From an uncultured Solirubrobacterales bacterium (GTDB lineage Bacteria > Actinomycetota > Thermoleophilia > Solirubrobacterales > Solirubrobacteraceae): DNA of 64,000 nucleotides. Location of the stretch: assembly GCA_963720665.1 (NCBI GenBank), contig CAVRGI010000014.1:38643-102642 (forward strand), read 5' to 3'. Both the position numbers and the translations under genes were made by a program. The notes beneath the pieces were generated by a model that was given only the letters and a program-made list of their open reading frames with translations, was not told where the DNA came from and made no database searches. This document shows positions 4,726 through 62,083 of the stretch, in pieces (position 1 is the first letter of the stretch; every line of letters starts with the position of its first letter).

Positions 4726-6150
4726 ATGAGCGACAAGCAGGAGGCAGACATGAGCACCACGATCACGGCAGCAGATGCGGCGCGAACAGAGCTCAGGGGG
4801 AAGTTCTCCGGCGAGCTCGTCGGCCCCACCGACCCAGGCTATGACCAGGCCCGCGCGGTCTTCAACGCGATGATCGATCGCCGCCCGGCGCTGATCGCCC
4901 GCTGCGCGAGCACCGAGGACGTAGCCGAGACGATCGCCTTCGCGCGCCGGCACGAGCTGCTGCTGGCCGTGCGCGGTGGCGGGCACAACGGCGGCGGATT
5001 GGGGGTCTGCGACGACGGTGTCGTGCTCGATCTCTCGCTGCTGCGCGCAGTCGAGGTCGATCCGGACGCCCGCACCGTTCGCGCGGGCGGCGGGTCCACC
5101 TGGGGCGAGGTCGATGCGGCGACCCACGAGGTCGGTCTGGCGACACCCTCGGGAATCATCTCGACGACCGGCGTCGGCGGCCTGGCGCTCGGAGGCGGGA
5201 TCGGCCATCTGGCGCGCAAGTACGGGCTCACGATCGACAACTTGATCGAGGCCGAGGTCGTGCTCACCGACGGAACTCTCGCGCGCGCGAGCGCCGACGA
5301 GAACCCCGAGCTGTTCTGGGCGCTGCGCGGCGGCGGCGGCAATTTCGGCGTCGTCACGTCGTTCCAGTTCCGGGCCCACCCGGTCTCCACCGTGCTCGCC
5401 GGACCGACGTTCTGGCCGATCGAGCAAACGCCCGAGGTGATGCGCTTCTACCGCGAGTTCCTGCCCGCCGCGCCGCGCGAGCTGAACGGGTTCTTCGCGA
5501 CCATGACCGTGCCGCCCGCGGACTTCCTGCCCGCGGATCTGCACCTGCGCAAAGTCTGCGCCGTGATGTGGTGCTACACGGGTGCGGAGGACGCCGCCGA
5601 GGAGCTGTTCGCTCCCGCGCAACAGATCGGTACACCGCTGCTGCACGGCGTCGCACCGACGCCGTTCCCGGCACTTCAGAGCCTGTTTGACGGGTTCTAC
5701 TCCCCGGGTCTGCAGTGGTACTGGCGCGCCGACTTCGTGCGGCAACTGCCCGACGAGGCGATCGCGGCCCATACCCAGTTCGCCGAGAAGCTGCCGACGC
5801 TGCACTCGGCGATGCACCTCTACCCGATCGACGGCGCCGTGCAGGACGTTGCCAATAGCGACACTCCGTTCAGCTACCGCGACGTGAACTGGGCCGAGGT
5901 GATCGTCGGCGTCGACCCGGATCCCGCAAACGCCGGCGTCATCCGCGACTGGACCGTCGACTACTGGGAGGCCACGCATCCCCACTCGGCCGGTGGCGCG
6001 TACGTCAACTTCATGATGGACGAGGGGCACGCGCGCGTGCGCGCAACCTACCGCGACAACTACGACCGACTGGCCGCGGCGAAGGCGACCTACGATCCGG
6101 CGAACGTGTGTCGCGTCAACCAGAACGTCGAGCCCCGGCAAGCAGCGTGA
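4726..6150 (+). CDS. FAD-linked oxidoreductase (PCMH-type FAD-binding domain with BBE-like C-terminus)
   Basis: 474-aa ORF with AVRGGGHNGGG and ALRGGGGNFGVVT motifs. A second ATG at 4750 follows a GGAGG (4740-4744) and is the more likely start. Confidence 0.85.
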   Translation: MSDKQEADMSTTITAADAARTELRGKFSGELVGPTDPGYDQARAVFNAMIDRRPALIARCASTEDVAETIAFARRHELLLAVRGGGHNGGGLGVCDDGVVLDLSLLRAVEVDPDARTVRAGGGSTWGEVDAATHEVGLATPSGIISTTGVGGLALGGGIGHLARKYGLTIDNLIEAEVVLTDGTLARASADENPELFWALRGGGGNFGVVTSFQFRAHPVSTVLAGPTFWPIEQTPEVMRFYREFLPAAPRELNGFFATMTVPPADFLPADLHLRKVCAVMWCYTGAEDAAEELFAPAQQIGTPLLHGVAPTPFPALQSLFDGFYSPGLQWYWRADFVRQLPDEAIAAHTQFAEKLPTLHSAMHLYPIDGAVQDVANSDTPFSYRDVNWAEVIVGVDPDPANAGVIRDWTVDYWEATHPHSAGGAYVNFMMDEGHARVRATYRDNYDRLAAAKATYDPANVCRVNQNVEPRQAA

Positions 6151-11356: not shown

Positions 11357-12691
11357 CTAGCGGCCCTGACGCATCAGCGCCCCGATATCCGGCATCTTGC
11401 CCCGTCCGAGCTGCTTCATCAGCTTGCGCGTCTGGCCGAACTGCTTGACGAGCTGGTTCACCTGCTGGACGTTCGTACCCGAGCCCCGGGCGATGCGCAG
11501 CCGCCGCGAGCCCTTGATCAGCTCCGGGTGACGGCGCTCGTCGGGCGTCATCGACAGGATGATCGCCTGCACGCGATCGAGCTCGCGCTCGTCGACCTTC
11601 ATGTTCTGCAGCTGATGCCCCGCGAGCCCGGGGAGCATGCCGAGCAGGTTGGTGAGGGGGCCCATCCGCCGCATCGTCTTGAGCTGAGCGAGGAAGTCGT
11701 CGAGGCCGAATTCGTCTCGCTTGAGCTTGCGCTGCAGCGCGAGCGCCTCGTCCTCGTCGAATTGGCGCTCGGCGTGCTCGATCAGGCTCAGCACGTCGCC
11801 CATGCCGAGGATCCGCTGGGCCATCCGGTCCGGGTGGAAGCGCTCGAACTGGCCGATCTTCTCGCCGGTCGACGCGAACATGATCGGCTTGCCGGTGACG
11901 GCCTTGACCGATAGCGCCGCGCCGCCGCGCGCGTCGCCGTCGAGCTTGCTCATCACCACGCCGTCGAACTGGATCTCCTCGGCGAACCGCTCGGCGACGC
12001 CGGCCGCGTCCTGGCCGGTCATCGCGTCGACCACCAGCAGCACATCGGTTGGGTCGACTGCGGAGCGCATCCGCACGAGCTCGGCCATCAGCTGCTCGTC
12101 GATGTGCAGCCGCCCGCTGGTGTCGACGATCAGGACGTCCTTGCCCTCCTGCTTGGCGCGCTCGAGCGCCCAGGCGGCGATCTCGACCGGGTCGCGCTCG
12201 GTCCCCTGCTCGTAGACGTCCGCCCCGGCCTGTCCTCCGACCTTGACGAGCTGCTCGACCGCGGCGGGCCGGTAGGTGTCGCACGCCGCGACCGCGACCG
12301 CAGCGCCGCGCTGCTCGCGCAGGTGATGCGCGAGCTTCGCGGTCGCGGTCGTCTTGCCCGAACCTTGCAGCCCGGCCATCAGGATCACGGTCGGCGGGCT
12401 GGAGGAGAACTCGAGCTCGGCCGCAGCGCCGCCCATCAGCGCGGTCAGCTCCTCGGCGACGATCTTGATGACCTGCTGGCCCGGGTTCAGCCCCCCGATC
12501 ACGTCTGCCCCGAGGCAGCGCTCCTTGACCTGCGCGGTGAACTGGCGCACGACCTTGAAGTTGACGTCCGCCTCGAGCAGCGCGAGCCTGATCTCGCGCA
12601 TCGCGGCGTCGACATCCTGCTCGGTCAGCGTCCCACGCCTGCGCACGTCGGCGAGCGCGATCTGGAGCTTCTCGGAGAGGGCGTCGAACAT
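11357..12691 (-). CDS. ffh: Signal recognition particle protein Ffh
   Basis: 444 aa with an NG domain (GLQGSGKTTT, DTSGR) and a Met-rich M domain (LLGMLPG...). Confidence 0.95.
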   Translation of the reverse strand: MFDALSEKLQIALADVRRRGTLTEQDVDAAMREIRLALLEADVNFKVVRQFTAQVKERCLGADVIGGLNPGQQVIKIVAEELTALMGGAAAELEFSSSPPTVILMAGLQGSGKTTATAKLAHHLREQRGAAVAVAACDTYRPAAVEQLVKVGGQAGADVYEQGTERDPVEIAAWALERAKQEGKDVLIVDTSGRLHIDEQLMAELVRMRSAVDPTDVLLVVDAMTGQDAAGVAERFAEEIQFDGVVMSKLDGDARGGAALSVKAVTGKPIMFASTGEKIGQFERFHPDRMAQRILGMGDVLSLIEHAERQFDEDEALALQRKLKRDEFGLDDFLAQLKTMRRMGPLTNLLGMLPGLAGHQLQNMKVDERELDRVQAIILSMTPDERRHPELIKGSRRLRIARGSGTNVQQVNQLVKQFGQTRKLMKQLGRGKMPDIGALMRQGR

Positions 12692-12733: not shown

Positions 12734-13654
12734 CTAGCGTTCGCCGTCCGCCGGCGGCAGCGGCGGCTGGTCGCCCGCGCCGCCGCTCACGCGCCGTGAG
12801 AGCGCTTCGCCGATGCCGCCGAAGGCCTGCGCGAACTCCGACGGCACGACGAACACCTTGTTGGCGTCGCCTTCGGCGAGGTCCGGCAGCATCTTCAGGT
12901 ATTCGTAGCTGAGCAGCTCGCGCGTCGGCTTGCCCGCGTGGATCGCTTTGAACACCGTATCGATCGCTTTCGCTTCGCCCTCGGCGCGCAAGATCGCGGC
13001 TTCGCGCTCGCCCTCGGCCGTCAGCACCGCCGCCTGCTTGGCTCCCTCCGCGGTGAGGATCTGCGACTGCTTCTCGCCTTCGGCGGTGAGGATCAGGGCA
13101 CGGCGATCGCGCTCGGCCCGCATCTGCTTCTCCATCGCCGTCTTGATGTCTTCCGGCGGATCGACCGACTTGATCTCGACGCGGTTGATCCTGATCCCCC
13201 ACTTGCCGGTCGCCTCGTCGAGGACCGTACGCAGCTCGGCGTTGACGTTCTCGCGCGCGGTCAGCGTCGCCTCGAGCGTCAGGCCTCCGATCACGTTGCG
13301 CAGGGTCGTCACGGTGAGCTGCTCGATCGCCTGCAGTGGATTGGAGATCTCATACGTCGCCGAGCGCGCATCGGTGATCGTGAAGTAGAGGACCGTTTCG
13401 ATCGCCACGACGACGTTGTCCTCGGTTATCACCGACTGGGGCGTGAAGTTCACGACCTGCTCGCGCATATCCAGAAGCGGGCGTACGCGGTCGATGAACG
13501 GGGTGACGATCGCCAGGCCAGGTTCGAGCGTACGGCTGTAGCGACCGAGCCGCTCGACGACCCCCGCCTTGGCCTGGGGAATCACGCGAATCGTGCGCGC
13601 CGCCAGCACCAGCGCGAACAACACGACCACGACGACGACGATGATTGCGACCAT
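12734..13654 (-). CDS. SPFH/band-7 (stomatin-like) membrane protein
   Basis: 306 aa with an N-terminal TM helix, an SPFH core and an AEGE-repeat coiled region. It is paired with an upstream NfeD gene. Confidence 0.9.
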   Translation of the reverse strand: MVAIIVVVVVVLFALVLAARTIRVIPQAKAGVVERLGRYSRTLEPGLAIVTPFIDRVRPLLDMREQVVNFTPQSVITEDNVVVAIETVLYFTITDARSATYEISNPLQAIEQLTVTTLRNVIGGLTLEATLTARENVNAELRTVLDEATGKWGIRINRVEIKSVDPPEDIKTAMEKQMRAERDRRALILTAEGEKQSQILTAEGAKQAAVLTAEGEREAAILRAEGEAKAIDTVFKAIHAGKPTRELLSYEYLKMLPDLAEGDANKVFVVPSEFAQAFGGIGEALSRRVSGGAGDQPPLPPADGER

Positions 13655-13714
13655 TGCCCAGGTTCCTTTTCTCGCAGGTGCTACCCGCAGCGTAGCTCGA
13701 TTACGGCACCTCTC

Positions 13715-14146
13715 TCAGTGCATGACCAGCGCAGTCGCTCCGCGAATCTCCACCACTTCGACCCGCTCGCCCGCGTCGATGATCTCGTCCTGGTCATAGC
13801 TGCGCGCCGTCCAGACCTCGCCGTCGATCTTCACGCAGCCGACGCCTTCGTCGTTGGCGATCCGCTCGATCACGATCGCGGGCTTGCCGACGAGCGCCGC
13901 TGCGCCGGTCCTGATCGCCGGCGGCAGCCTGCGATGCCTGTGTGCGACGGGCCGAAGCGTCGCGAAGACGATCCCCGACGCGGCCAGGAACACGATCGTG
14001 CTGAGCAGGACGCCCACCCCGAGCAGGCTGACGACGGCTGCGAGCGCCGCTCCCGCCGCGAACGGGGCGAGATAGAAGCTGCCTTGATGCATCTCGCCCA
14101 CGCCGAGCAGACAGGCGGCGATGAGCCACACGATCCATGCATCCAT
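13715..14146 (-). CDS. NfeD family membrane protein
   Basis: 143 aa with N-terminal TM helices and a C-terminal OB-like domain (GKPAIVIERI...VKIDGEVWTARS), sitting upstream of the SPFH gene. Confidence 0.85.
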   Translation of the reverse strand: MDAWIVWLIAACLLGVGEMHQGSFYLAPFAAGAALAAVVSLLGVGVLLSTIVFLAASGIVFATLRPVAHRHRRLPPAIRTGAAALVGKPAIVIERIANDEGVGCVKIDGEVWTARSYDQDEIIDAGERVEVVEIRGATALVMH

Positions 14147-14155
14147 GCCTCCAGA

Positions 14156-15160
14156 TTACTCGCCGGCAACCAATGCCTGCGCGAATTCCTGCGGATCGAA
14201 CGGCGTGAGATCCTCGACCGTCTCGCCGGTGCCGATCAGCTTGACCGGCAGCTGCAGCTCGCGCGCGATCGCCAGCGCGATGCCCCCGCGCGCGGTTCCG
14301 TCGAGCTTGGTCAGCACGACGCCCGTGACGCCAGCCGCGTCGGCGAACAGCTGCGCCTGGCGCAGCCCGTTCTGGCCGGTCGTCGCGTCGATCGTCAGCA
14401 GCGTCTCGTGCGGGGCGCCCTGCAGCTGGCGGCCGATCACGCGGCGGACCTTGGCGAGCTCGGCCATCAGATCGTCCTGGGTGTGCAAGCGTCCGGCCGT
14501 GTCGACGATCACCACGTCGCAGCCGTCCGCGTGCGCGCGGGAAATCGCCTCGAACGCGACCGCGCCCGGGTCCGAGCCCTCCGGGCCGGTCACGATCTCA
14601 CAGCCGGCCCGCTGCGCCCAGCCCGCGAGCTGCTCGCTGGCAGCCGCCCGGAACGTGTCCGCGGCGGCGAGCAGCACGGTCCGGCGCAGCTCCTTGTGCA
14701 GGTGCCAGGCGAGCTTGCCGATCGTCGTCGTCTTGCCGGTCCCATTGACGCCGACCGCCAGGATCACCGTTGGCTTTGCTCGGATGTCGATGCGCCCGTC
14801 GCCGACATCGGCCGTCTGGGCCAGGAGTCCGACCAGCCGCTCGCTCAGCGCCTCGCCGCCCTCGAGTTCCCCCGCGTCGGCCTCGGACTCGAGCGTCGCG
14901 ACGATCGCAGCGGTCGTGCGCGCACCCACGTCCGCGACGATCAGAGCCTCCTCCAGGCGTTCCCACGCTTGCGCGTCGAGCGGCCCGAACAGCGTCGCTT
15001 TGATCTCGCCGCCGAGCGCCTCGCGAGTCTTCGTCAGATTCTCGCGCAAGCGTCGGAAGAGCCCGCGCCTGCGCTCGCGCCGGCCGGCAGACGCCTCCCC
15101 GTCGCCTGGCGTGCCCGCCGGGTCACCGGCGATGAACAGCTCGCTCCAGTCTCGCGCCAC
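14156..15160 (-). CDS. ftsY: Signal recognition particle receptor FtsY
   Basis: 334 aa with an NG domain (GVNGTGKTTT, DTAGR, TKLDGTARGG), in the conserved rnc-smc-ftsY order. Confidence 0.95.
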   Translation of the reverse strand: MARDWSELFIAGDPAGTPGDGEASAGRRERRRGLFRRLRENLTKTREALGGEIKATLFGPLDAQAWERLEEALIVADVGARTTAAIVATLESEADAGELEGGEALSERLVGLLAQTADVGDGRIDIRAKPTVILAVGVNGTGKTTTIGKLAWHLHKELRRTVLLAAADTFRAAASEQLAGWAQRAGCEIVTGPEGSDPGAVAFEAISRAHADGCDVVIVDTAGRLHTQDDLMAELAKVRRVIGRQLQGAPHETLLTIDATTGQNGLRQAQLFADAAGVTGVVLTKLDGTARGGIALAIARELQLPVKLIGTGETVEDLTPFDPQEFAQALVAGE

Positions 15161-15171
15161 GGCGGGGTGTC

Positions 15172-17973
15172 TCAGGCAACCTCGGCGACGGACGCCGGCT
15201 CGCCGCGCTCGACCGCGTCGATGCCCGGGGCGGAGGGCGGCGCCTGCGCCGCGCGCCCCGAATCTTCAAGCCGGTCGGCCGTGTCCGTTCGGTCGTCCGT
15301 GTCCGTACGGTCGGCCAGGTCCGGTCGGTCGGCCAGGTCCGGTCGGTCGGCCCCGTCCAGCGGGTCCGCCGCGTCCGGCCGGTCGGCCCCTTCCGGCCGG
15401 TCCGCCGCGTCCGGCCGGTCGGCCCCGTCCAGCCGGTCGGCCCCTTCCGTTCGGTCGGCCGCGTCCAGCCGGTCAGCAGCTTGCGGAGGCAGGCGCCGCG
15501 AGAGCACCTTGGAGACGCCGTCGCTGCCCATCGAGACGCCGTACAGCCAGTCGGCGGCCTCCATCGTGCGCTTCTGGTGGGTGATGACGATGAACTGCGC
15601 GCGGTCGGCGTAGCGGCGCAGCAGCCCCACGAAGCGGTCGAGGTTGAGGTCGTCCAGCGCGGCCTCGACCTCGTCGAGGATGTAGAAGGGGCATGGCCTG
15701 GCGAGGAATACGGCGAACACGAACGCGAGCGCCGTCAGCGACTTCTCTCCGCCGGACAGCAGCGACAGGCGTTTGGTCGACTTGCCCGCCGGCGTGATCT
15801 CGATCTCGACGCCGAGCGGGTCCTCCATCCCGTCGCGTTCGAGCTCATCTCGTTCAGGCTCCATCTCCGCGACTGACTCAGTGGCGCCGTCCGCGTGGGC
15901 CGCGCCGCTCGCTTGCGAAGCTTCTGCGTCGAGCGGTTCGGCGCCGAGCACCGGTCGCGGCGCCTGCTCCTCGCGCACCAGCCGCAGCCGTCCGCTGCCG
16001 CCAGGAAACAGATCGCCGACGAGCTCTTCGAAGTTCCGCGCGGCTGCCGTGAACGTCCGCTCGAACGTCTCGCTTATCTGGCGGTCGGTGTCTCTGATCA
16101 CGCTACCCAGCTCGCGCAGCGCCGTCTCCAGGTCTTCCCGCCTGGACTCGAGCTCCGCGACATGAGCGAGCGACTCCGCGTACTCCTCCTGCGCGAGCGG
16201 ATTGATCGGACCGAGCTGCTCGCGCCGGCGCATCAGCCGCTGCACGCGCGCCTCCAGCGCCTCGGCCTCCTCCGCCGCGAGCGGCTGCTCTTGGCCGTCC
16301 TCGTCTGACGGCGTCAGCTGCAGACGCTCGGCGATGTCGCGCAGCTCGGTTTGGGCCTCCGCGGCCTGATCGCGCAGGCGCTGCGCGGCGAGCGCCGCCT
16401 CCGTGACGGCCTCGCTCGCAGCACGCAGTGCGCTCTGGATCTCGGCCTCCTCGCCCGCGCACAGGCGCAGCTCGCCGGCGACCTCCTCGCCAACCGCGCT
16501 GTCCTGGTCGAGCTCCGCGTCGAAGCGCCCGACCACGCCCGCTGCGATCGCCGCGTCGAGGCTCGCCAGCGCGTCGCTCAGCCGCTGCGCGACCGGCGCC
16601 AGCCGCAGATCGGCCTCGAGCCGGGCGCGCAAACTCTCGATCCGCTGGGCCCGTTCGGCGAGCGCTGACGCCGCGAGCTCGGCTCGGCGACGCTCCTCCT
16701 CGGTATTCGAGCTGGACAGCGCGTCGGCGAGCGCGCGCTCAAACGCCTCGCGCGCCAGGAGCTCCGCTGCGGCGAGCGCCTCCTCGAGCAGCCGCGCGCG
16801 CGCGTCGTCGTCGCTCTGCCGCAGCGCGCGCTCGACGCCGTCGGCGATCGTGCTGCGGACCCGTCGCCAGAGCGCTTCCCAGGCCGCCCGACCGTCGCTT
16901 CCGGCGACCGCATCCTGCTCGCCCGGCGGGCCCGGCAGAACCTGCTCGGCGACGGCAGCCCGCGCGGCTGCCCCGGACGGCGACGGGAGAGGTTCGACAA
17001 GCTCCGCCTGCTGGCGCTCGATCCGGCGCGCGAGCACCTGCGCGCTGGCGCTCGCCTGCTCCGCGCGCAGACCGATGCGATCGCGCGCCGAGCGCGCGCC
17101 GTAGGCGCGGCGCGCCAGCTCGTCGCGACGCTCGGAGCGCTCGGTCAAGGCGCGTTCGGCCGCTGCGCGCCGGCGCACGACCGCTTGCAGTTCGGACTCG
17201 ACGTGCTCACGCCGCTCGCGCGCGGCGTCGGCGCGCGCCTCGGCCGCTCGCAGCTCGACACTGCGGGCGCGCAGCGACTCGCGACCAAGCGTCCAGCGTG
17301 CTTCCAGCGTCTGGCGTTCGAGCCGCTCGTGCAGCTCCGCCGCCTCTGCCTGGCGCTTGAGCGGGCGCAGCCGCGCGCGCGCCTCGCGCTCGATGTCCAG
17401 CGCGCGATCGAGGTTCTCCTGGGTTCGTTCGAGCTTCAGCTGCGCGCGCCGGCGGCGCTTGCGGTGCTTGCCCAGCCCGGCCGCCTCCTCGATCAGCAGC
17501 CGCCGCTCGCGCGGTTTGGAGGTCACGATCGACTCGACCCGCCCCTGGGAGATAACCGAGTGGGTCTCCTTGCCAAGCCCGGTGTCGGAGAGCACCTCGA
17601 TCACGTCACTCAGCCGGCAGCGCGCGCCGTTCAAGCGGTAGCCGCCGTCGCCCGTGCGCTCGAGCCGCCGTACGATCGATATTTCGCTCAGGGGAACGGC
17701 GAGCGTGCCGTCGGAGTTGTCGAGCACGATCTCGACCTCGGCCGCGTTGCGCGCCTGCACGCCTCTGGCGCCGCCGAAGATCACGTCCTGCATCGACTGC
17801 CCCCTCACCGCCAGCGGCGATTGCTCGCCCATCGCCCAGAGCACCGCGTCGGTGATGTTCGACTTGCCCGATCCGTTCGGCCCGACGACGACGCTCACAC
17901 CCGGCCCGAAGTCGAGCGTGGTCCGCCCGGAAAAGGACTTGAAACCCTTCAGGGTGAGCGATTTCAAACGCAC
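15172..17973 (-). CDS. smc: SMC chromosome segregation ATPase (short; no hinge recognised; repeat tail)
   Basis: A GTG at 17973 gives VRLKSLTLKGFKSF...GPNGSGKSN (Walker A). The C-terminal head has LSGGEK and ILDEVEAALD. The gene sits between rnc and ftsY. It is about 933 aa, against roughly 1150-1200 aa for typical SMC as I recall. Confidence 0.8.
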   Translation of the reverse strand: MRLKSLTLKGFKSFSGRTTLDFGPGVSVVVGPNGSGKSNITDAVLWAMGEQSPLAVRGQSMQDVIFGGARGVQARNAAEVEIVLDNSDGTLAVPLSEISIVRRLERTGDGGYRLNGARCRLSDVIEVLSDTGLGKETHSVISQGRVESIVTSKPRERRLLIEEAAGLGKHRKRRRRAQLKLERTQENLDRALDIEREARARLRPLKRQAEAAELHERLERQTLEARWTLGRESLRARSVELRAAEARADAARERREHVESELQAVVRRRAAAERALTERSERRDELARRAYGARSARDRIGLRAEQASASAQVLARRIERQQAELVEPLPSPSGAAARAAVAEQVLPGPPGEQDAVAGSDGRAAWEALWRRVRSTIADGVERALRQSDDDARARLLEEALAAAELLAREAFERALADALSSSNTEEERRRAELAASALAERAQRIESLRARLEADLRLAPVAQRLSDALASLDAAIAAGVVGRFDAELDQDSAVGEEVAGELRLCAGEEAEIQSALRAASEAVTEAALAAQRLRDQAAEAQTELRDIAERLQLTPSDEDGQEQPLAAEEAEALEARVQRLMRRREQLGPINPLAQEEYAESLAHVAELESRREDLETALRELGSVIRDTDRQISETFERTFTAAARNFEELVGDLFPGGSGRLRLVREEQAPRPVLGAEPLDAEASQASGAAHADGATESVAEMEPERDELERDGMEDPLGVEIEITPAGKSTKRLSLLSGGEKSLTALAFVFAVFLARPCPFYILDEVEAALDDLNLDRFVGLLRRYADRAQFIVITHQKRTMEAADWLYGVSMGSDGVSKVLSRRLPPQAADRLDAADRTEGADRLDGADRPDAADRPEGADRPDAADPLDGADRPDLADRPDLADRTDTDDRTDTADRLEDSGRAAQAPPSAPGIDAVERGEPASVAEVA
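15262..15486 (-). repeat. About 12 tandem 18-nt units inside the smc 3' end
   Basis: Units such as cggtcggtcggccaggtc, cggccggtcggccccgtc and cagccggtcggccccttc recur at an 18-nt period. They encode ADRLDA ADRTEG ADRLDG ADRPDA ADRPEG and similar hexapeptides. Confidence 0.85.
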
Positions 17974-17989
17974 CGATGGACTCGCTTTC

Positions 17990-18682
17990 TCAGGATCCCG
18001 ACTGCAGCCGCTCGACCACAACCCGGGCCGCCTCCTGCTCTGCCTGCTTCTTGCTTTTGCCGCTGCCTCCTCCCATCAGCTCGCCGTCGACCAGCGCCGC
18101 GACCTCGTAGATGCGCTCGTGCGGCGGCCCGCTCTCGCGCTGGATCTCGTAGCTGACGACCTCTCCGCGGCGCGCGAGCAGCTCCTGCAGCGCGGACTTG
18201 AAGTCGACCGGGTTCTCCAGCGCCTGGTCGATCTCCGGCGCAAACGCATCGACCACGGCTTGGGCAGTGCGCTCGTAGCCCGTGGTCAGGTAGCAGGCGC
18301 CGATCACCGCCTCGATCACCGACGCGAGCACGCGCTCGGTCTCGGACAGCGCGCCCGCACCGTCCGACGCTCCCTGCGGGGCTGCCGCGCGTAGCCGCGC
18401 CGGCACTCCCAGCCGCTCGGCGACCGCCCGGCAGCTCGGTCCCGACACCGCCTGCGCACGGATCTTCGTGAGCCTGCCTGCGCCGAAGCGCTCGGCCTCC
18501 AAACGCGGATACAGGTGCGTGGTGACCGCCAGCGCGAGCACGCTGTCGCCGAGGAACGCCAGCCGTACGTAGGAATCCTCGCGCCGATCGGTCCACGACG
18601 CGTGCGTGAACACCTGGCGCTCGAGCTCCGCGGGCAGCTCTTCCAGCAATTGCCTCAGGCGTTTCATGCGCGGGCATCCCAC
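17990..18682 (-). CDS. rnc: Ribonuclease III
   Basis: 230 aa with the FLGDSVLALAV signature and a C-terminal dsRBD (GSGKSKKQAEQEAA). Confidence 0.9.
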   Translation of the reverse strand: MGCPRMKRLRQLLEELPAELERQVFTHASWTDRREDSYVRLAFLGDSVLALAVTTHLYPRLEAERFGAGRLTKIRAQAVSGPSCRAVAERLGVPARLRAAAPQGASDGAGALSETERVLASVIEAVIGACYLTTGYERTAQAVVDAFAPEIDQALENPVDFKSALQELLARRGEVVSYEIQRESGPPHERIYEVAALVDGELMGGGSGKSKKQAEQEAARVVVERLQSGS

Positions 18683-56483: not shown

Positions 56484-57194
56484 CTAGGCAGCAGGCGGTC
56501 CGCTCCCGGAGCGGGCATCGCCCGCGCGCAAGAGCCGCTCGCGCAGCTCGGCACGCTCGTCGGGAGTCGGATCCCAGCGCGCGACATCGGGCAGCTCCTG
56601 CAGCGAGCGCAGGCCGAACAGCTTCAAGAAGAGCGCGCTCGTCCGATACATGATCGCGCCGAACTGCGAGCGTCCCGCCTCCTCGATCAGGCCGCGCTCG
56701 AGCAGCGTGCTCGAGGCGGAGTCGGCGCTGACGCCGCGGATGCGCGTGATCTCCGGACGCGACACCGGTTGCAGGTAGGCGACGATCGCGAGCGTCTCGG
56801 CCTGCGCAGGGGTGAGCGTGCCGGCGCGCGGGCGGTTGAGCAGCCGTCGCGCGGCGTCGTCGCTGGCCGCGTCGGTCGCGAGCGTGAAGCCGCCGGCCAG
56901 CTCGCGCAAGACGATCCCGCCGGCGCCCGGCGGGTAGCTTTGGGCGAGCGCCGCGAGCGCCTCCTGCACCTCTCCCTGATCGAGCTGCGCCGCATCGGCG
57001 AGCTCGGCGACGCTGAGCGCATCGGAGGAGAGGAAGAGCAGCGCCTCGATCGTTCGCGCCGGCGCGACGGCGCCCCCGCCCCCCGGCGTCGCCGCCACCC
57101 GGATCTCGCCGTTGGCGCCGAGGTCGGGCGGCGCGATCTGCTCGATCGGCCGATCCCCGTCGCCGCCGTTCGGCGCGGCGGCGGAATCGCTCAT
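56484..57194 (-). CDS. scpB: SMC-Scp complex subunit ScpB
   Basis: From the ATG at 57194 (ATGA overlap with scpA): ...IEALLFLSSDALSV...LAIVAYLQPVSRPEITRIRGV... Confidence 0.9.
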   Translation of the reverse strand: MSDSAAAPNGGDGDRPIEQIAPPDLGANGEIRVAATPGGGGAVAPARTIEALLFLSSDALSVAELADAAQLDQGEVQEALAALAQSYPPGAGGIVLRELAGGFTLATDAASDDAARRLLNRPRAGTLTPAQAETLAIVAYLQPVSRPEITRIRGVSADSASSTLLERGLIEEAGRSQFGAIMYRTSALFLKLFGLRSLQELPDVARWDPTPDERAELRERLLRAGDARSGSGPPAA

Positions 57195-57952
57195 CGCGCC
57201 GCCTCCGCGAGCGCGGCGGGCTGCCGCGCCGCCGGCGCGCTGATCGCTATCTCGCCGAAGCACTCGGACTGGCGCCAATCGGCTTCGCCGCACTTGTACA
57301 GCTCCAGCAGCGCGAACAGGGTCACCGCGATCGTCATCCTGTCGGCGCCGCGCACGGCGTCGTCGAAACTGAACGCGCCGCGGAGCAGCAACCGGCGCAG
57401 GTGCGCCAGGCGCTCGGCGACGCTCACGCGCGGGCTGGCGAGGTGGCGCAGGCTGATCGAGGGCGGCACCGCGAGCAGCCGGCCGATCGCATCGCCCAGG
57501 ACCTCGGGATCGTGGGTGCCCTCGCGCAGCTGAATTTGGGTGCGGCGCAGGTGAGCGGGGGGCGGCACTTCGCGAAACCGCGTGCCGCGCTCGCGCGCGA
57601 GCAGCTCCTTGAGATGACTCGCGGCAGCCCGGTAGCGGCGGGCGTCGAGCATCCGCGCGAGCAGCTCCTCGGCCGCCTGCTCGGGCTCGAGCTCGGCCAG
57701 CTCCTCGTCCTCCTCGTTGGCGAGCATCAGCCTGGACTTGAGCTCCAGCAGCGCGGCGATCAGGACGATGAACTCGGTCGTCGCCTCCAGGTCGAGCTCG
57801 CCGCGTGCCTCGAGATGATCGAGGTAGGCGAGCACCACGTCGGCGAGCGCAAGCTCGAGCAGGTCCACCTCTTCGCGCAGGATCAGCGCCAGCAGCAGAT
57901 CGAACGGGCCGCTGAACACGTCGAGGTCGAGATCCAGCGCGGTGATCGTCAT
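57191..57952 (-). CDS. scpA: Segregation and condensation protein A (kleisin)
   Basis: 253 aa, LDVFSGPFDLLLALILREEVDL... Confidence 0.9.
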   Translation of the reverse strand: MTITALDLDLDVFSGPFDLLLALILREEVDLLELALADVVLAYLDHLEARGELDLEATTEFIVLIAALLELKSRLMLANEEDEELAELEPEQAAEELLARMLDARRYRAAASHLKELLARERGTRFREVPPPAHLRRTQIQLREGTHDPEVLGDAIGRLLAVPPSISLRHLASPRVSVAERLAHLRRLLLRGAFSFDDAVRGADRMTIAVTLFALLELYKCGEADWRQSECFGEIAISAPAARQPAALAEAAR

Positions 57953-58035: not shown

Positions 58036-59076
58036 TCACTCACGGTACCCATCCGTCCCGACGCGCAATCTGTCCGCCCCGGCCGGCGCCCCGACTCCCA
58101 TCCGCTCGCGCACGTCCGCGAGCGTGCCTGCGGCGATCGCCCGGGCGCGCCCGACGCCGTCGGCGAGGACCGCCTCGAGCGCTGCCTCGTCGGAACGCAG
58201 GTCCGCGTAGCGCTCGCGCACGGGCGCGAGATACTCGATCGTGGCGGCGGCGACGGCCTGCTTGAGCTCGCCGTAGCCGCGCGCGCCGGCGAGCTCGGCT
58301 TCGATCGCCTCCGGCGTGCTGGCGCGGGCGACGGCCAGGATTTCGATCAGATTGGACACACCCGGCTTCTCGGGCGAGCGCGCGATCTCGCTGCCGGAGT
58401 CGGTGACGGCGCTACGGATCTTCTTCTCGATCGCCTTGGGCTCGTCGAGGACGTACACGGTGCCCTGCTCAGAGCCGCCGGTCGTCGACATCTTCGTGCT
58501 CGGGTCTTGTAGATCCATGATCCGCGCGCCTACCTGCGGGATGCGGTGCTCGGGCACGACGAGCACTTCCTCGCCGTTGCCGAAGCGCGCGTTGAAGCGC
58601 GTCCCGATGTCGCGCATCAGCTCGACGTGCTGGCGCTGGTCATCGCCGACCGGGACCTCTTGGGCGCGGTAGGCGAGCACGTCTGCGGCCATCAGCACCG
58701 GGTAGAAGAACAGCGCCGCCGAGACCAGCTCGCGCTGCGCCGCGGACTTCTCCTTGAACTGGTGCATGCGCATCAGATCGCCGTAGGCGGTGACGCTCGA
58801 CAAAAGCCACGTCAGCTCCGTGTGCTCGGGCGCGTCGCTCTGGCGAAACAGGATGCAGCGCTCGGGGTCGAGGCCCGCGGCGAGCAGGATCGCGGCGGTG
58901 TCGTAGACCAGCTTGCGCAGGGCGGCGGGATCCCAGGGGACCGACAGCGAGTGCAGGTCGACGATGCAGTAGATCGCTTCACCGCGATCCTGGCCGGCGA
59001 CATACTGGCTGATTGCACCGATGTAGTTGCCGAGGTGCTTGGCGCCGGTGGGCTGGATGCCGGAGAAGATTCGCAT
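58036..59076 (-). CDS. trpS: Tryptophan--tRNA ligase
   Basis: From the ATG at 59076: MRIFSGIQPTGAKHLGNYIG (HIGH-like) and the KMSTT (KMSKS-like) motif, 346 aa. Confidence 0.95.
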   Translation of the reverse strand: MRIFSGIQPTGAKHLGNYIGAISQYVAGQDRGEAIYCIVDLHSLSVPWDPAALRKLVYDTAAILLAAGLDPERCILFRQSDAPEHTELTWLLSSVTAYGDLMRMHQFKEKSAAQRELVSAALFFYPVLMAADVLAYRAQEVPVGDDQRQHVELMRDIGTRFNARFGNGEEVLVVPEHRIPQVGARIMDLQDPSTKMSTTGGSEQGTVYVLDEPKAIEKKIRSAVTDSGSEIARSPEKPGVSNLIEILAVARASTPEAIEAELAGARGYGELKQAVAAATIEYLAPVRERYADLRSDEAALEAVLADGVGRARAIAAGTLADVRERMGVGAPAGADRLRVGTDGYRE

Positions 59077-59090
59077 CGGCGAGCCCCAGC

Positions 59091-60680
59091 CTAGGAAAGG
59101 GCCTGGCGCAGGACGGGACGCTTGGCCGCGCGGACCTCGTCCAGGCGCCGCACGGGGGTCGTGTACGGGGCGTTGCGCGCGATCTCCGGCCCCTCGGTCG
59201 CGGCCTCGCCGAGGATCGCCGTGAGCGCGTCGGCGAACGCGTCGAGCGTCTCCCTGGTCTCGGTCTCGGTCGGCTCGATCATCAGCGCCTCGTCGACGAG
59301 CAGCGGAAAGTAGACGGTCGGCGGGTGAAAGCCGAAGTCGAGCAAGCGCTTGGCAAGGTCGAGCGTTCTCAGCTTCAGCTCGCGCTTCATCGCTCCGCCG
59401 GAGAGCACGAACTCGTGCATGCACAGCTCCCCGTAGGCCAGCGGCAGGCGCTCGGCGACACCGCGCTGCTTCAGCCGCGCGAGCAGGTAGTTCGCGTTCA
59501 GCACGGCCGTCTCGGAGGCATCCTTCAGCCCGTCGGCGCCGAGCGAGCGGATGTAGGCGTAGGCGCGCACGAAGCAGCCGTAGTTTCCGTGAAAGCCGCG
59601 CAGGCGCCCGATCGACTGCGGGCGCTCGTAGTCGAGCTCGAACACGGCCGCGGGGGTGCGCGCGTCGGTCTCGGCCGGCGACCGTTCGCTGCGACCGTCG
59701 CCGGGGAGGCTCGCGCCGCCGCTCGCCGGCCCCGCGCGACGGTCGTGGCGCACGACCAGCGGGACGGGCAGGAACGGCGCGATCCGCTCGCTCACCGCGA
59801 TCGGCCCCGAGCCCGGTCCGCCGCCGCCGTGCGGCTGGGTGAACGACTTGTGCAGGTTGAAGTGCACGATGTCGAAGCCCATGTCGCCGGGACGCGAGAT
59901 CCCCATCACGGCGTTGAGGTTGGCGCCGTCGTAGTACAGCGTCGCCCCGACTTCGTGGACGATCGCGGCGATCTGCTCGATGTTTGAGTCGAACAGACCG
60001 AGCGTATTCGGGTTGGTGAGCATCAGGCAGGCGACGTCCTCGTCGGCCTTGGCGCGCAGATCGTCGAGGTCGACGCCGCCGGCGGAGTCGCTGGCCAGCT
60101 TGACGACCTCGAGCCCGGCCATCGTCACCGTCGCCGGGTTCGTGCCGTGCGCGGTGTCGGGCGTGAGCACCTTGCGGCGCTGCTGGCCGCAGCTCTCGTG
60201 ATAGGCGCGGCTGAGCAGCACGCCCGCGAGCTCTCCGTGCGACCCGGCGGAGGGCTGCAGCGAGACGTACGGGAGCCCCGCGAGCTCGGCGAGCGCCTCC
60301 TGCAGATGCCACATCAGCGCGAGCGCTCCCTGGGCGTGCTCGGGGTCCTGCAGCGGGTGCAGCCGCGCGTGGCCGGGCAGAGCGGCGGCGCGCTCGTGCA
60401 GGCGCGGGTTGTGCTTCATCGTGCACGAGCCGAGCGGGTAGAAGCCCGAGTCCAGGTCGAAGTTGCGCTTGGAGATGCTGACGTAGTGGCGCACGATCTC
60501 GGGCTCGGAGACCTCGGGCAGGCCCGGAGGATCGAGCCGCCGGTGGCGCGCGGGCAGCAGCGTCTCGGCGGCGGCGCCGGGGACGTCGATCGCGGGACAG
60601 ACGAACGCACGGCGCCCGGGAGACCCCTTCTCGAAGATCGTGCGCGCGCGTTCGCGCTGCAGCGGGGCCTCGGCACTCAT
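59091..60680 (-). CDS. gcvPB: Glycine dehydrogenase (aminomethyl-transferring) subunit 2
   Basis: From the ATG at 60680 (ATGA overlap with gcvPA): LGSCTMKHNP and the PLP site NLHKSFTQPHGGGGPG. Confidence 0.95.
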   Translation of the reverse strand: MSAEAPLQRERARTIFEKGSPGRRAFVCPAIDVPGAAAETLLPARHRRLDPPGLPEVSEPEIVRHYVSISKRNFDLDSGFYPLGSCTMKHNPRLHERAAALPGHARLHPLQDPEHAQGALALMWHLQEALAELAGLPYVSLQPSAGSHGELAGVLLSRAYHESCGQQRRKVLTPDTAHGTNPATVTMAGLEVVKLASDSAGGVDLDDLRAKADEDVACLMLTNPNTLGLFDSNIEQIAAIVHEVGATLYYDGANLNAVMGISRPGDMGFDIVHFNLHKSFTQPHGGGGPGSGPIAVSERIAPFLPVPLVVRHDRRAGPASGGASLPGDGRSERSPAETDARTPAAVFELDYERPQSIGRLRGFHGNYGCFVRAYAYIRSLGADGLKDASETAVLNANYLLARLKQRGVAERLPLAYGELCMHEFVLSGGAMKRELKLRTLDLAKRLLDFGFHPPTVYFPLLVDEALMIEPTETETRETLDAFADALTAILGEAATEGPEIARNAPYTTPVRRLDEVRAAKRPVLRQALS

Positions 60681-62083
60681 GCGAGCGCAACCTCGCGCTC
60701 GGCGCTGACCGCGGCGCCGAGCACATCGGCGAGGCGGTCGATCTGCGCACGGGTGCGTTGCTCGGTGATCGCGACCAGCAGTCCGCCGCGGTCCTCCTCG
60801 CGGCCGCTCAGCGCCTGGATGTCGACCCCCGGGTTCACGCCGGCGCGCGCGCAGCGCGCCTTGACGGATGCGACGTCCGCGTCGAGCGCGAGCGCGAACT
60901 CTCTGATCACCGGCTGCTCGTGCCACGGCCGCACCCCCTCGAGCGCTGCGAGCGTCTTGCGCGCGTAGTCGGTGCGCGCCAGCAGCAGCTCGCCGAGCTC
61001 GACGATCCCGCGGCGGCCAAGCCAGGCGAGGTAGACGACGCCGGCGAGCGCGTTGAGCGCCTGTGCGGTGCAGATGTTCGAGGTCGCCTTCTCGCGCCGG
61101 ATGTGCTGCTCGCGTGTCTGCAGCGTCAGCACGAAGCCGCGCCGCCCGTCCACGTCGACGGTCTCGCCCGCGATCCGGCCGGGCATCCGCCGCAGATACT
61201 CCTCGCGGGCGGCGAACAGGCCGAACGAGGGGCCGCCGAAATCGAGCCGGTTGCCGAGCGACTGGCCCTCGCCGACGGCGACGTCCACGCCGCACTCGCC
61301 GGGGGGCTTGAGGACGCCGAGCGTGATCGGATCCACCTGCGCGACGACGACCGGCCTGTCGGCGGCATCGCCCCGCGCCGCGCCCGACCGCTTCGCCGCG
61401 GCGGCGAGCGCAGCGGCGTCCTCGACGGCGCCATAGAAGTTCGGCTGCGCGAAGCAGGCCGCGCTGGTGTCGATGTCGATCGCCGCTGCCCAGGCGTCGG
61501 GGTCGGTGACGCCGTCGGCGAGCGGAACCTCGACCAGCTCCATCGCGAACCCGTGCGCGTAGGTGCGCAGCGTCTGAATCGAGTGGGGATGCATGCCGGC
61601 GCTGACCACGAGCCGGCGGCGGCCGTTGTGCAGCTTGGCCAGGTAGCCCGCGGACGCGAGCGCGCTCGGCCCCTCGTACAGCGAAGCGTTGGCGACCGGC
61701 AACGCGGTCAGCTCGCAGATCGCGGTCTGGTACTCGAACATCACCTGCAGCACGCCCTGGGAGATCTCGGGCTGGTAGGGCGTGTAGGGGGTGAGGAACT
61801 CGGAGCGCTCCATCAGCATGTCGATCAGCGCGGGCACGTAGTGGTCGTACATCCCCGCGCCGAGGAAGGACAGCTGATCCTCGGTGCAAACGTTGCGCGC
61901 GGCGAGCTCACGCAGATGCGCATAGACATCCTGCTCGGGCATTCCCTGCGGCAGGTCGAGCGGGCGGCCGAGCCGCAGCGACTCGGGGATCTGACGGTCG
62001 AACAGCTCCTGCAGCGAGCCGACTCCGATCGCGCCGAGCATCTGCTCGCGCTCGGAAGGCGTGGTGGCGGTGTAGCGGCTCAA
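60677..62083 (-). CDS. gcvPA: Glycine dehydrogenase (aminomethyl-transferring) subunit 1
   Basis: 468 aa, MSRYTATTPSEREQML...FLGAGMYDHYVPA... Confidence 0.95.
   Translation of the reverse strand: MSRYTATTPSEREQMLGAIGVGSLQELFDRQIPESLRLGRPLDLPQGMPEQDVYAHLRELAARNVCTEDQLSFLGAGMYDHYVPALIDMLMERSEFLTPYTPYQPEISQGVLQVMFEYQTAICELTALPVANASLYEGPSALASAGYLAKLHNGRRRLVVSAGMHPHSIQTLRTYAHGFAMELVEVPLADGVTDPDAWAAAIDIDTSAACFAQPNFYGAVEDAAALAAAAKRSGAARGDAADRPVVVAQVDPITLGVLKPPGECGVDVAVGEGQSLGNRLDFGGPSFGLFAAREEYLRRMPGRIAGETVDVDGRRGFVLTLQTREQHIRREKATSNICTAQALNALAGVVYLAWLGRRGIVELGELLLARTDYARKTLAALEGVRPWHEQPVIREFALALDADVASVKARCARAGVNPGVDIQALSGREEDRGGLLVAITEQRTRAQIDRLADVLGAAVSAEREVALA

Follow-up and report, generated by a model that had tools for sequence, protein, structure and literature searches.

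The window analysed here, a stretch of 64,000 nucleotides (64 kb) from contig CAVRGI010000014.1 of an uncultured Solirubrobacterales bacterium, contains an smc gene whose product lacks a recognisable hinge domain and has coiled-coil arms of approximately 160 amino acids (aa) per strand. We consider it probable, on balance, that this gene is the cell's own smc, representing a clade-wide natural reduced form which works with ScpAB and whose subunits are joined at their tips. An earlier reading made from the letters of the DNA (the sequence-only reading) had described the gene as a canonical SMC with no recognisable hinge, and both parts of that description are borne out by the analysis reported below.

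The Pfam model SMC_N matches aa 3-821 of the product with an E-value of 2e-64, and the hinge model SMC_hinge (PF06470) gives no match even at E<=1. The same hinge model does recognise a hinge-bearing relative used as a positive control (P0037; 1.9e-8, aa 464-578). We found no split hinge or hinge remnant when the hinge regions of four relatives were compared with the 64-kb window by tblastn (best E 0.45), and no second SMC head is encoded within the window. The centre of the product matches no solved structure by sequence. A hinge fold is likewise absent from the AlphaFold2 models of aa 1-835 and of the centre, where only helices and loops are predicted, and a Foldseek search with the model of aa 250-500 returned no significant neighbour and nothing hinge-like, its best match (E 0.05) falling among coiled coils and long helical hairpins of a generic kind. 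The protein is therefore without a recognisable hinge both by hidden Markov model and by predicted fold.

In its head, its joint and its locus the gene looks like a canonical smc. The open reading frame at 15172-18021 on the reverse strand gives a translation identical to the one quoted in the sequence-only reading. Since the upstream rnc gene has its stop codon at 17990 and all aligned homologues start at MRLKSL, the GTG at 17973 is, judging by sequence, the most likely start, yielding a product of 933 aa. The head motifs LKGFKSF, GPNGSGKSN, LSGGEK and ILDEVEAALD are all intact in this translation, as had been claimed together with the approximate protein length, and 55 aligned sequences show no variation in the Walker A motif, Q-loop, signature motif, Walker B or H-loop. 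The NCBIfam SMC equivalog model TIGR02168 scores 613.5 bits, in three stretches, and thus passes its cut-off of 567.35. The PDB entry that the whole structural model matches best is 5xei (E 9e-23), which comprises the head of a Pyrococcus Smc together with its joint and coiled coil, and the gene order is rnc-smc-ftsY. Synteny, equivalog score and structural match therefore agree on canonical SMC identity.

A head and a coiled coil without a hinge do resemble Rad50 and RecN, and the gene could accordingly be thought to have changed its role, becoming a repair ATPase similar to Rad50, SbcC or RecN or the SMC of a defence system. The window's Smc shares with Rad50/SbcC and RecN an ABC-type head, an antiparallel coil and a far end that is not a hinge domain, and the PADLOC models mad3 (5.8e-68; aa 538-833, ~15475-16361) and LmuB (1.9e-23) match parts of it. 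However, these PADLOC matches fall on generic SMC-head regions, and the neighbours of the gene (rnc, ftsY, ffh, plsX) are housekeeping genes, with no adjoining nuclease, Mre11/SbcD or defence partner. The Rad50 models of NCBIfam reach 21-64 bits against cut-offs of 700-1087, and the only cysteines of the product are C119, C505 and C761, so that no Cys pair is located near the tip; RecN is not among the matches listed. For the MukB, MksB or JetC type we found no Pfam or NCBIfam match in the product, which sits between rnc and ftsY. Moreover, over the N-terminal third the product is 80-84% identical to orthologues from this locus that have a hinge. The descent of the protein is clearly that of an Smc, not of a Rad50 or RecN, and we regard a change of role as very improbable. 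The defence-system version of it was dropped, given that the PADLOC matches are generic to the head and that no defence genes are nearby.

The hinge-less form is shared by many related organisms. We searched 5.8 billion proteins and aligned the 120 best matches together with the query (121 sequences); these matches place the gene in Solirubrobacteraceae/Solirubrobacterales. Three architectures can be distinguished in the alignment. Class C (55 of 121; 1100-1260 aa) has a hinge. Class B (23 of 121; ~940-990 aa) is missing ~175 aa including the hinge. In class A, to which the query belongs (43 of 121, query included; 830-930 aa), the hinge is gone together with ~60 aa of the ascending and ~58 aa of the descending strand, a matched trimming which is what an antiparallel coiled coil needs in order to stay in register. 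The comparison of orthologue lengths and architectures proposed in the sequence-only reading thus shows that the short hinge-less form is common among Solirubrobacterales homologues. Within class A the head is 90-93% and the neck 93% identical; for the N-terminal half of the head, mean pairwise identity is 90% within class A and 91% across classes A and B. The strong conservation of the heads, along with the removal of matching amounts from both strands, suggests that selection on function continues.

The genomic context of the gene was examined in a scan of 533 relatives, of which the best 80 were retained, each from a different metagenome-assembled genome (MAG), several of them closed chromosomes. 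The retained MAGs are labelled Solirubrobacterales, Solirubrobacteraceae or "Actinomycetes", and complete genomes with a hinge-less smc include OY970210.1 (class A) and OY970158.1 (class B). The rnc gene lies upstream in all 80 loci and ftsY downstream wherever the contig reaches, with or without a hinge alike. Because this context is uniform, the hinge-less genes are positional orthologues of the canonical smc, and to judge from these sequence comparisons the short form is that of a clade rather than a one-off or a decayed copy. The chance that we are dealing with an assembly artefact or a pseudogene is close to nil, as the reading frame is intact, conservation is strong and dozens of independent MAGs, closed chromosomes among them, share the architecture. 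Several of the orthologues (for example P0001, P0041 and P0070), some hinge-bearing ones included, are named just 'AAA family ATPase' by NCBI; because of such names, hinge-less condensins are probably under-counted in annotation.

The architecture of the remaining protein was modelled with AlphaFold2 as a monomer (aa 1-835, 55-sequence alignment) and, separately, for aa 250-500 (mean predicted local distance difference test score, pLDDT, of 89.8; 85-97 in the tip helices). The two arm strands match in length (159 aa ascending, ~162 aa descending). Each paired strand, at ~160 aa, is ~110 aa shorter than the ~270 aa of hinge-bearing class C; with the tip helices counted it reaches ~185-195 aa, in agreement with the short arms of about 175-220 aa estimated from the sequence. 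The ascending strand is one continuous helix whose neck portion is nearly invariant, and the descending strand contains a conserved block, ELRxCAxEEAEIQ...VTEAEVAAQRLRDQ. The sequence-only reading had seen a Pro/Gly/Ala-rich linker where the hinge should be. This stretch proves not to be a stand-in for the hinge: it is a loop internal to the arm (aa 327-361) whose length and sequence vary, and hinge-bearing relatives have a variable loop at the equivalent position of their ascending strand. The tip is formed by two helices that follow it (aa 362-384 and 389-419).

This two-helix tip module aligns with the segment directly after the hinge in class C (…GRVWFAAWGEVRQ…), and by this alignment it is homologous to the post-hinge segment of hinge-bearing relatives. 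The class C segment presumably comprises the last Gly-rich strand of the hinge and the start of the descending coil. The module is free of gaps in all 55 hinge-less sequences, with W369 invariant and W365, G379, R392, A403, E404, A407 and A414 conserved at >=90%. Its overall identity of ~0.5 is like that of the arms, compared with 0.21 for the loops. The pattern of two Trp residues (W..xW) and two helices recurs in P0132, from a lineage that is only ~51% identical. The arithmetic of arm lengths is compatible with two topologies: the tip helices may prolong the coiled coil, or they may fold back onto it.

Hinge-less smc genes are not restricted to close relatives of the query. A divergent clade from Solirubrobacterales and 'Actinomycetes' (loci L010-L014 and L027, with smc at 6001 to ~8400) carries a still shorter hinge-less smc at the rnc-smc-ftsY locus; the proteins of L010-L014 have 785-818 aa and ~50% identity, and the two that were run through Pfam (L010 and L012) gave no hinge match. 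Further short relatives, at 36-51% identity, came to light when 1.84 billion cluster representatives were searched exhaustively. When ten short relatives were compared with Pfam, seven matched SMC_N throughout and had no hinge, two had a hinge with very short arms and one was a fragment. Two hinge-less proteins, P0203 (916 aa, from an Actinomycetota MAG) and P0195 (838 aa), are encoded in an rnc…smc-ftsY-ffh neighborhood. Going by these sequences and their loci, more distant Actinomycetota also have a hinge-less smc at the rnc/ftsY locus. Four distant hinge-less proteins of low GC content carry Cys pairs in mid-protein (P0182, C461/C465; P0189 and P0190, both C461/C468; P0259, C444/C449). These pairs recall a metal-binding hook; the window's smc product has no such pair.

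The explanation that we favor is as follows. The peripheral part of the protein, namely the hinge, ~100 aa of the ascending coil next to it and ~58 aa of the descending coil, would have been removed, leaving head, neck and joint untouched, and the remaining antiparallel coiled coil of ~160 aa per strand would be closed by the two-helix module derived from the former post-hinge segment. The product would still serve, together with ScpAB, as a condensin. A four-helix bundle packed from the tip helices of both protomers may join the far ends, and arm-to-arm zipping and the ScpA bridge at the heads could help to hold the dimer together. By analogy, the tip would take the role of the Rad50 zinc hook that was grafted on Bacillus subtilis Smc. 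The dimerisation step, which we propose to be mediated by the tips, is the weak link of this explanation.

Four observations weigh against it. Conserved apolar positions make up the same share of the tip helices (0.41) as of the arms (0.39-0.44); since the tip exceeds the arms neither in apolarity nor in conservation, its sequence carries no signature of an interface. In the shortest clade (L010-L014) the apex is a short loop without the Trp pair, which leaves no evident tip mechanism common to all. The partnership with ScpAB is deduced from the co-occurrence of the genes. Finally, the visible part of the genome amounts to 64 kb and the scan retained 80 of 533 relatives, so that a divergent second copy could be missed. 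A "wide hydrophobic face" of the tip, considered at one stage, was dropped once the conservation of apolar positions proved equal to that of the arms.

The first two of these observations, together with the fact that the structural neighbors of the tip are generic helical hairpins, would fit a functional condensin whose tips are unjoined. In such a protein, ATP-engaged heads, the ScpA bridge and lateral contacts between the arms would hold an open-topped clamp, and the tip helices would merely cap the arms. We consider this rather unlikely, given that B. subtilis Smc is inactivated when hinge dimerisation is abolished (PMC5344682). In addition, the length of the tip is fixed and its small and aromatic residues are invariant in 55 sequences, and it is not obvious why a passive cap should require this.

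The last observation bears on whether the gene is a reduced copy backed up by a second, hinge-bearing Smc or by MksBEF elsewhere in the genome, in which case loss of the hinge would be tolerated rather than adaptive. This is still less likely. The ancestral rnc-smc-ftsY slot is occupied by the gene in every locus, no MAG is represented twice among the best 80 of the 533 loci (a suggestive but not decisive result), and none of the 120 best protein matches pair up on contigs of equal size. Heads conserved at 90-93% and strands trimmed alike also argue against a dispensable copy, and a study of marine sequences too saw no co-occurring regular SMC (PMC12153180). We therefore retain the explanation in which the hinge-less protein is the cell's own, tip-joined Smc.

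Within Solirubrobacterales the two forms, hinge-bearing and hinge-less, are interleaved. In a neighbour-joining tree built on the shared columns and rooted at the midpoint, class B sequences are scattered at >=5 places among class C, and sliding-window comparisons explain this scatter by mosaic centres. In the class B protein of L044 and the class C protein of L034, the first ~300 aa are 95-99% identical (84-96% at the DNA level). Around the position of the hinge, in ~120 aa on its N-terminal and ~80 aa on its C-terminal side, identity falls to ~40% (DNA 53-66%), and the remainder, minus variable loops and inserts, is again 69-99% identical (DNA 72-95%). The same pattern is observed in the pair L009/L078 (the smc gene starts at ~5000 and 6001 in loci L044 and L034, respectively, and at 2836 and 6001 in L009 and L078). 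Across all pairs, identity of the post-hinge segment is 0.77 within class C, 0.63 within class B and 0.42 between B and C, whereas the flanks are 0.84-0.87 identical in every comparison (within C, within B and B versus C).

On the simplest reading of this pattern in the sequences, homologous recombination would carry the distal arm from lineage to lineage as a cassette, whether or not it includes a hinge. The segment concerned coincides with the separable SMC 'periphery' (hinge and adjacent coiled coil) described elsewhere (PMC12647877). We put forward, tentatively, the wider idea that the far end of Smc is a swappable cassette exchanged between Solirubrobacterales species, and that its hinge-less version dimerises via a two-helix tip, a mode undescribed for Smc. 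If true, this would constitute a natural experiment indicating that a loop-extruding condensin can dispense with both the hinge fold and a hinge gate.

Compared with the canonical Smc of the B. subtilis type, the window's Smc has the same head motifs, neck, joint, antiparallel coil, locus, TIGR02168 assignment and accompanying scpA and scpB genes, but it lacks the hinge, ends in a two-helix tip, and has ~160 aa paired per strand as opposed to the 341-aa mode that is nearest to the B. subtilis arm (PMC5344682). Natural Smc arms were reported to have preferred lengths, with modes at 163 (minor), 238 and 341 aa, and to be constrained in length with a period of ~99 aa (PMC5344682). The ~160-aa strands fall on the minor 163-aa mode, and the ~110 aa by which they are shorter than those of class C correspond to roughly one period, a fit that we take as suggestive only. 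Because that survey located the arms via the hinge (PMC5344682), hinge-less forms would probably have escaped it.

B. subtilis grows normally with an Smc in which the Rad50 zinc hook replaces the hinge, whereas loss of dimerisation is not tolerated; the authors concluded that in this setting it does not matter which fold the dimerising domain has (PMC5344682). Mini-Smc and Smc(Zh) thus show, as a point of likeness to the Solirubrobacterales form, that Smc can work with shortened arms and with a dimeriser other than the hinge (PMC5344682). These two are laboratory constructs with a zinc-dependent dimeriser, whereas the Solirubrobacterales form is natural and its dimeriser putative. Wadjet JetC of types II and III is also a natural SMC-family motor without the canonical 'donut' channel of the hinge (PMC12647877); there, however, loss of the donut goes together with longer arms in a defence system, while here it is the arms of a housekeeping Smc that are shorter.

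The closest precedent is an abundant 'hinge-less' SMC cluster of marine Actinobacteria in the Tara Oceans gene catalogue, published in 2025 (preprint 2024) (PMC12153180). Its AlphaFold models have no hinge and it has no CXXC motif; paralogy versus lineage-specific loss was discussed there without resolution, although a paralogue was judged unlikely (PMC12153180). By description, the window's protein shares all four traits of that cluster: it is actinobacterial, combines an SMC-type head with a coiled coil, and has neither a hinge nor a CXXC motif. The marine proteins are metagenomic catalogue sequences presented without locus context, arm analysis or mechanism (PMC12153180), while in the soil lineage Solirubrobacterales hinge-bearing and hinge-less forms are interleaved and the locus, ScpAB and tip are defined. 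A full-text literature search (Solirubrobacter with SMC, and various phrasings of 'hingeless') returned nothing else relevant. Since the marine cluster has been published, hinge-less SMC as a kind is not new; what is new is the coexistence of both forms in Solirubrobacterales, their positional orthology, the nested series of deletions in which both strands are trimmed alike, the tip module and the mosaic centre.

Coordinates of the smc features and of the neighboring genes are collected in the table. The plsX gene lies upstream of rnc. The scpA and scpB genes are located ~40 kb from smc on the same strand, and their Pfam matches support the statement of the sequence-only reading that both partners are encoded in the window of smc. 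Next to them, a 904-aa open reading frame (58036-60750, reverse strand) matches class I tRNA synthetases of the Trp/Tyr type in aa 557-841 only; its long N-terminal part may be an over-extended call in high-GC sequence or a real extension.

Features of the smc gene and its surroundings in the 64-kb window (all on the reverse strand)
Feature	Nucleotides	Strand	Residues	Details
smc coding sequence, hinge-less short-armed (class A)	15172-17973	-	933 aa	GTG start
N-terminal half of ATPase head	17479-17973	-	1-165	Walker A GPNGSGKS at 17860-17883
Ascending arm strand	16996-17472	-	168-326	one continuous helix (AlphaFold2)
Disordered Pro/Gly/Ala-rich loop	16891-16995	-	327-361	pLDDT ~30; 21% identity with gaps
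Tip module	16717-16890	-	362-419	58 aa, two helices (AlphaFold2): H1 362-384, turn 385-388, H2 389-419
Short break between H2 and descending strand			420-425	AlphaFold2
Descending arm strand	16213-16698	-	426-587	helix 426-550, loop 551-566, helix 567-587
C-terminal half of ATPase head	15490-16212	-	588-828	LSGGEK 15742-15759; ILDEVEAALD (Walker B) 15652-15681; H-loop ITHQK
Acidic disordered insertion in C-terminal head	15817-15972	-	668-719	between FPGGSGRLRLV and GVEIEITPAGK
Tandem repeat in smc tail (tail 15172-15489)	15270-15474	-		18 nt x 11.4; ADRPDx hexapeptides
rnc (RNase III)	17990-18682	-		directly upstream of smc
ftsY	14156-15160	-		directly downstream of smc
SPFH/Band-7 gene and NfeD gene	12734-14146	-		between ftsY and ffh
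ffh	11357-12691	-		
scpA (kleisin)	57191-57952	-		PF02616, 2.1e-20
scpB	within 56484-57194	-		PF04079, 2e-43

Two further peculiarities of the protein concern its C-terminal part. An acidic insertion of ~50 aa, noted in the sequence-only reading, is indeed found in the C-terminal head and is predicted to be disordered. It occurs family-wide, in hinge-bearing and hinge-less relatives alike, and is therefore unrelated to the hinge's loss; on this comparison it is a lineage trait. The head is followed by a tail of ~105 aa. A repeat tail of about 100 aa had been described, and this length is accurate, but the tail does not consist of repeat throughout: the repeat covers ~68 aa of it and is present in none of the 120 homologues. 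The product ends in VAEVA, a pentapeptide common to the whole family. The VAEVA codons were considered as a ribosome-binding site for ftsY and rejected, as the GAGG is ~19 nucleotides upstream of the ftsY GTG and thus too far away.

The function of the hinge is an active subject of SMC research, and the roles proposed for it are those of dimeriser, DNA-binding site, entry gate and, most recently, obstacle-bypass gate (PMC12647877). If the hinge serves as an obstacle-bypass gate (PMC12647877), the hinge-less form should lack the bypass route. The interest of the hinge-less proteins for SMC specialists is tempered by the prior marine report and by the zinc-hook evidence that the hinge fold can be replaced. 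The Solirubrobacterales nevertheless provide a natural series at one orthologous locus in one family, with a full hinge in 55 sequences, the hinge removed in 23, and hinge removal together with matched trimming of the arm strands in 43. This series offers ready-made constructs and comparison genomes for studying the roles of the hinge and the distal arm, dimerisation without a hinge, and compensation by the host, such as in the number of parS sites or in gene orientation.

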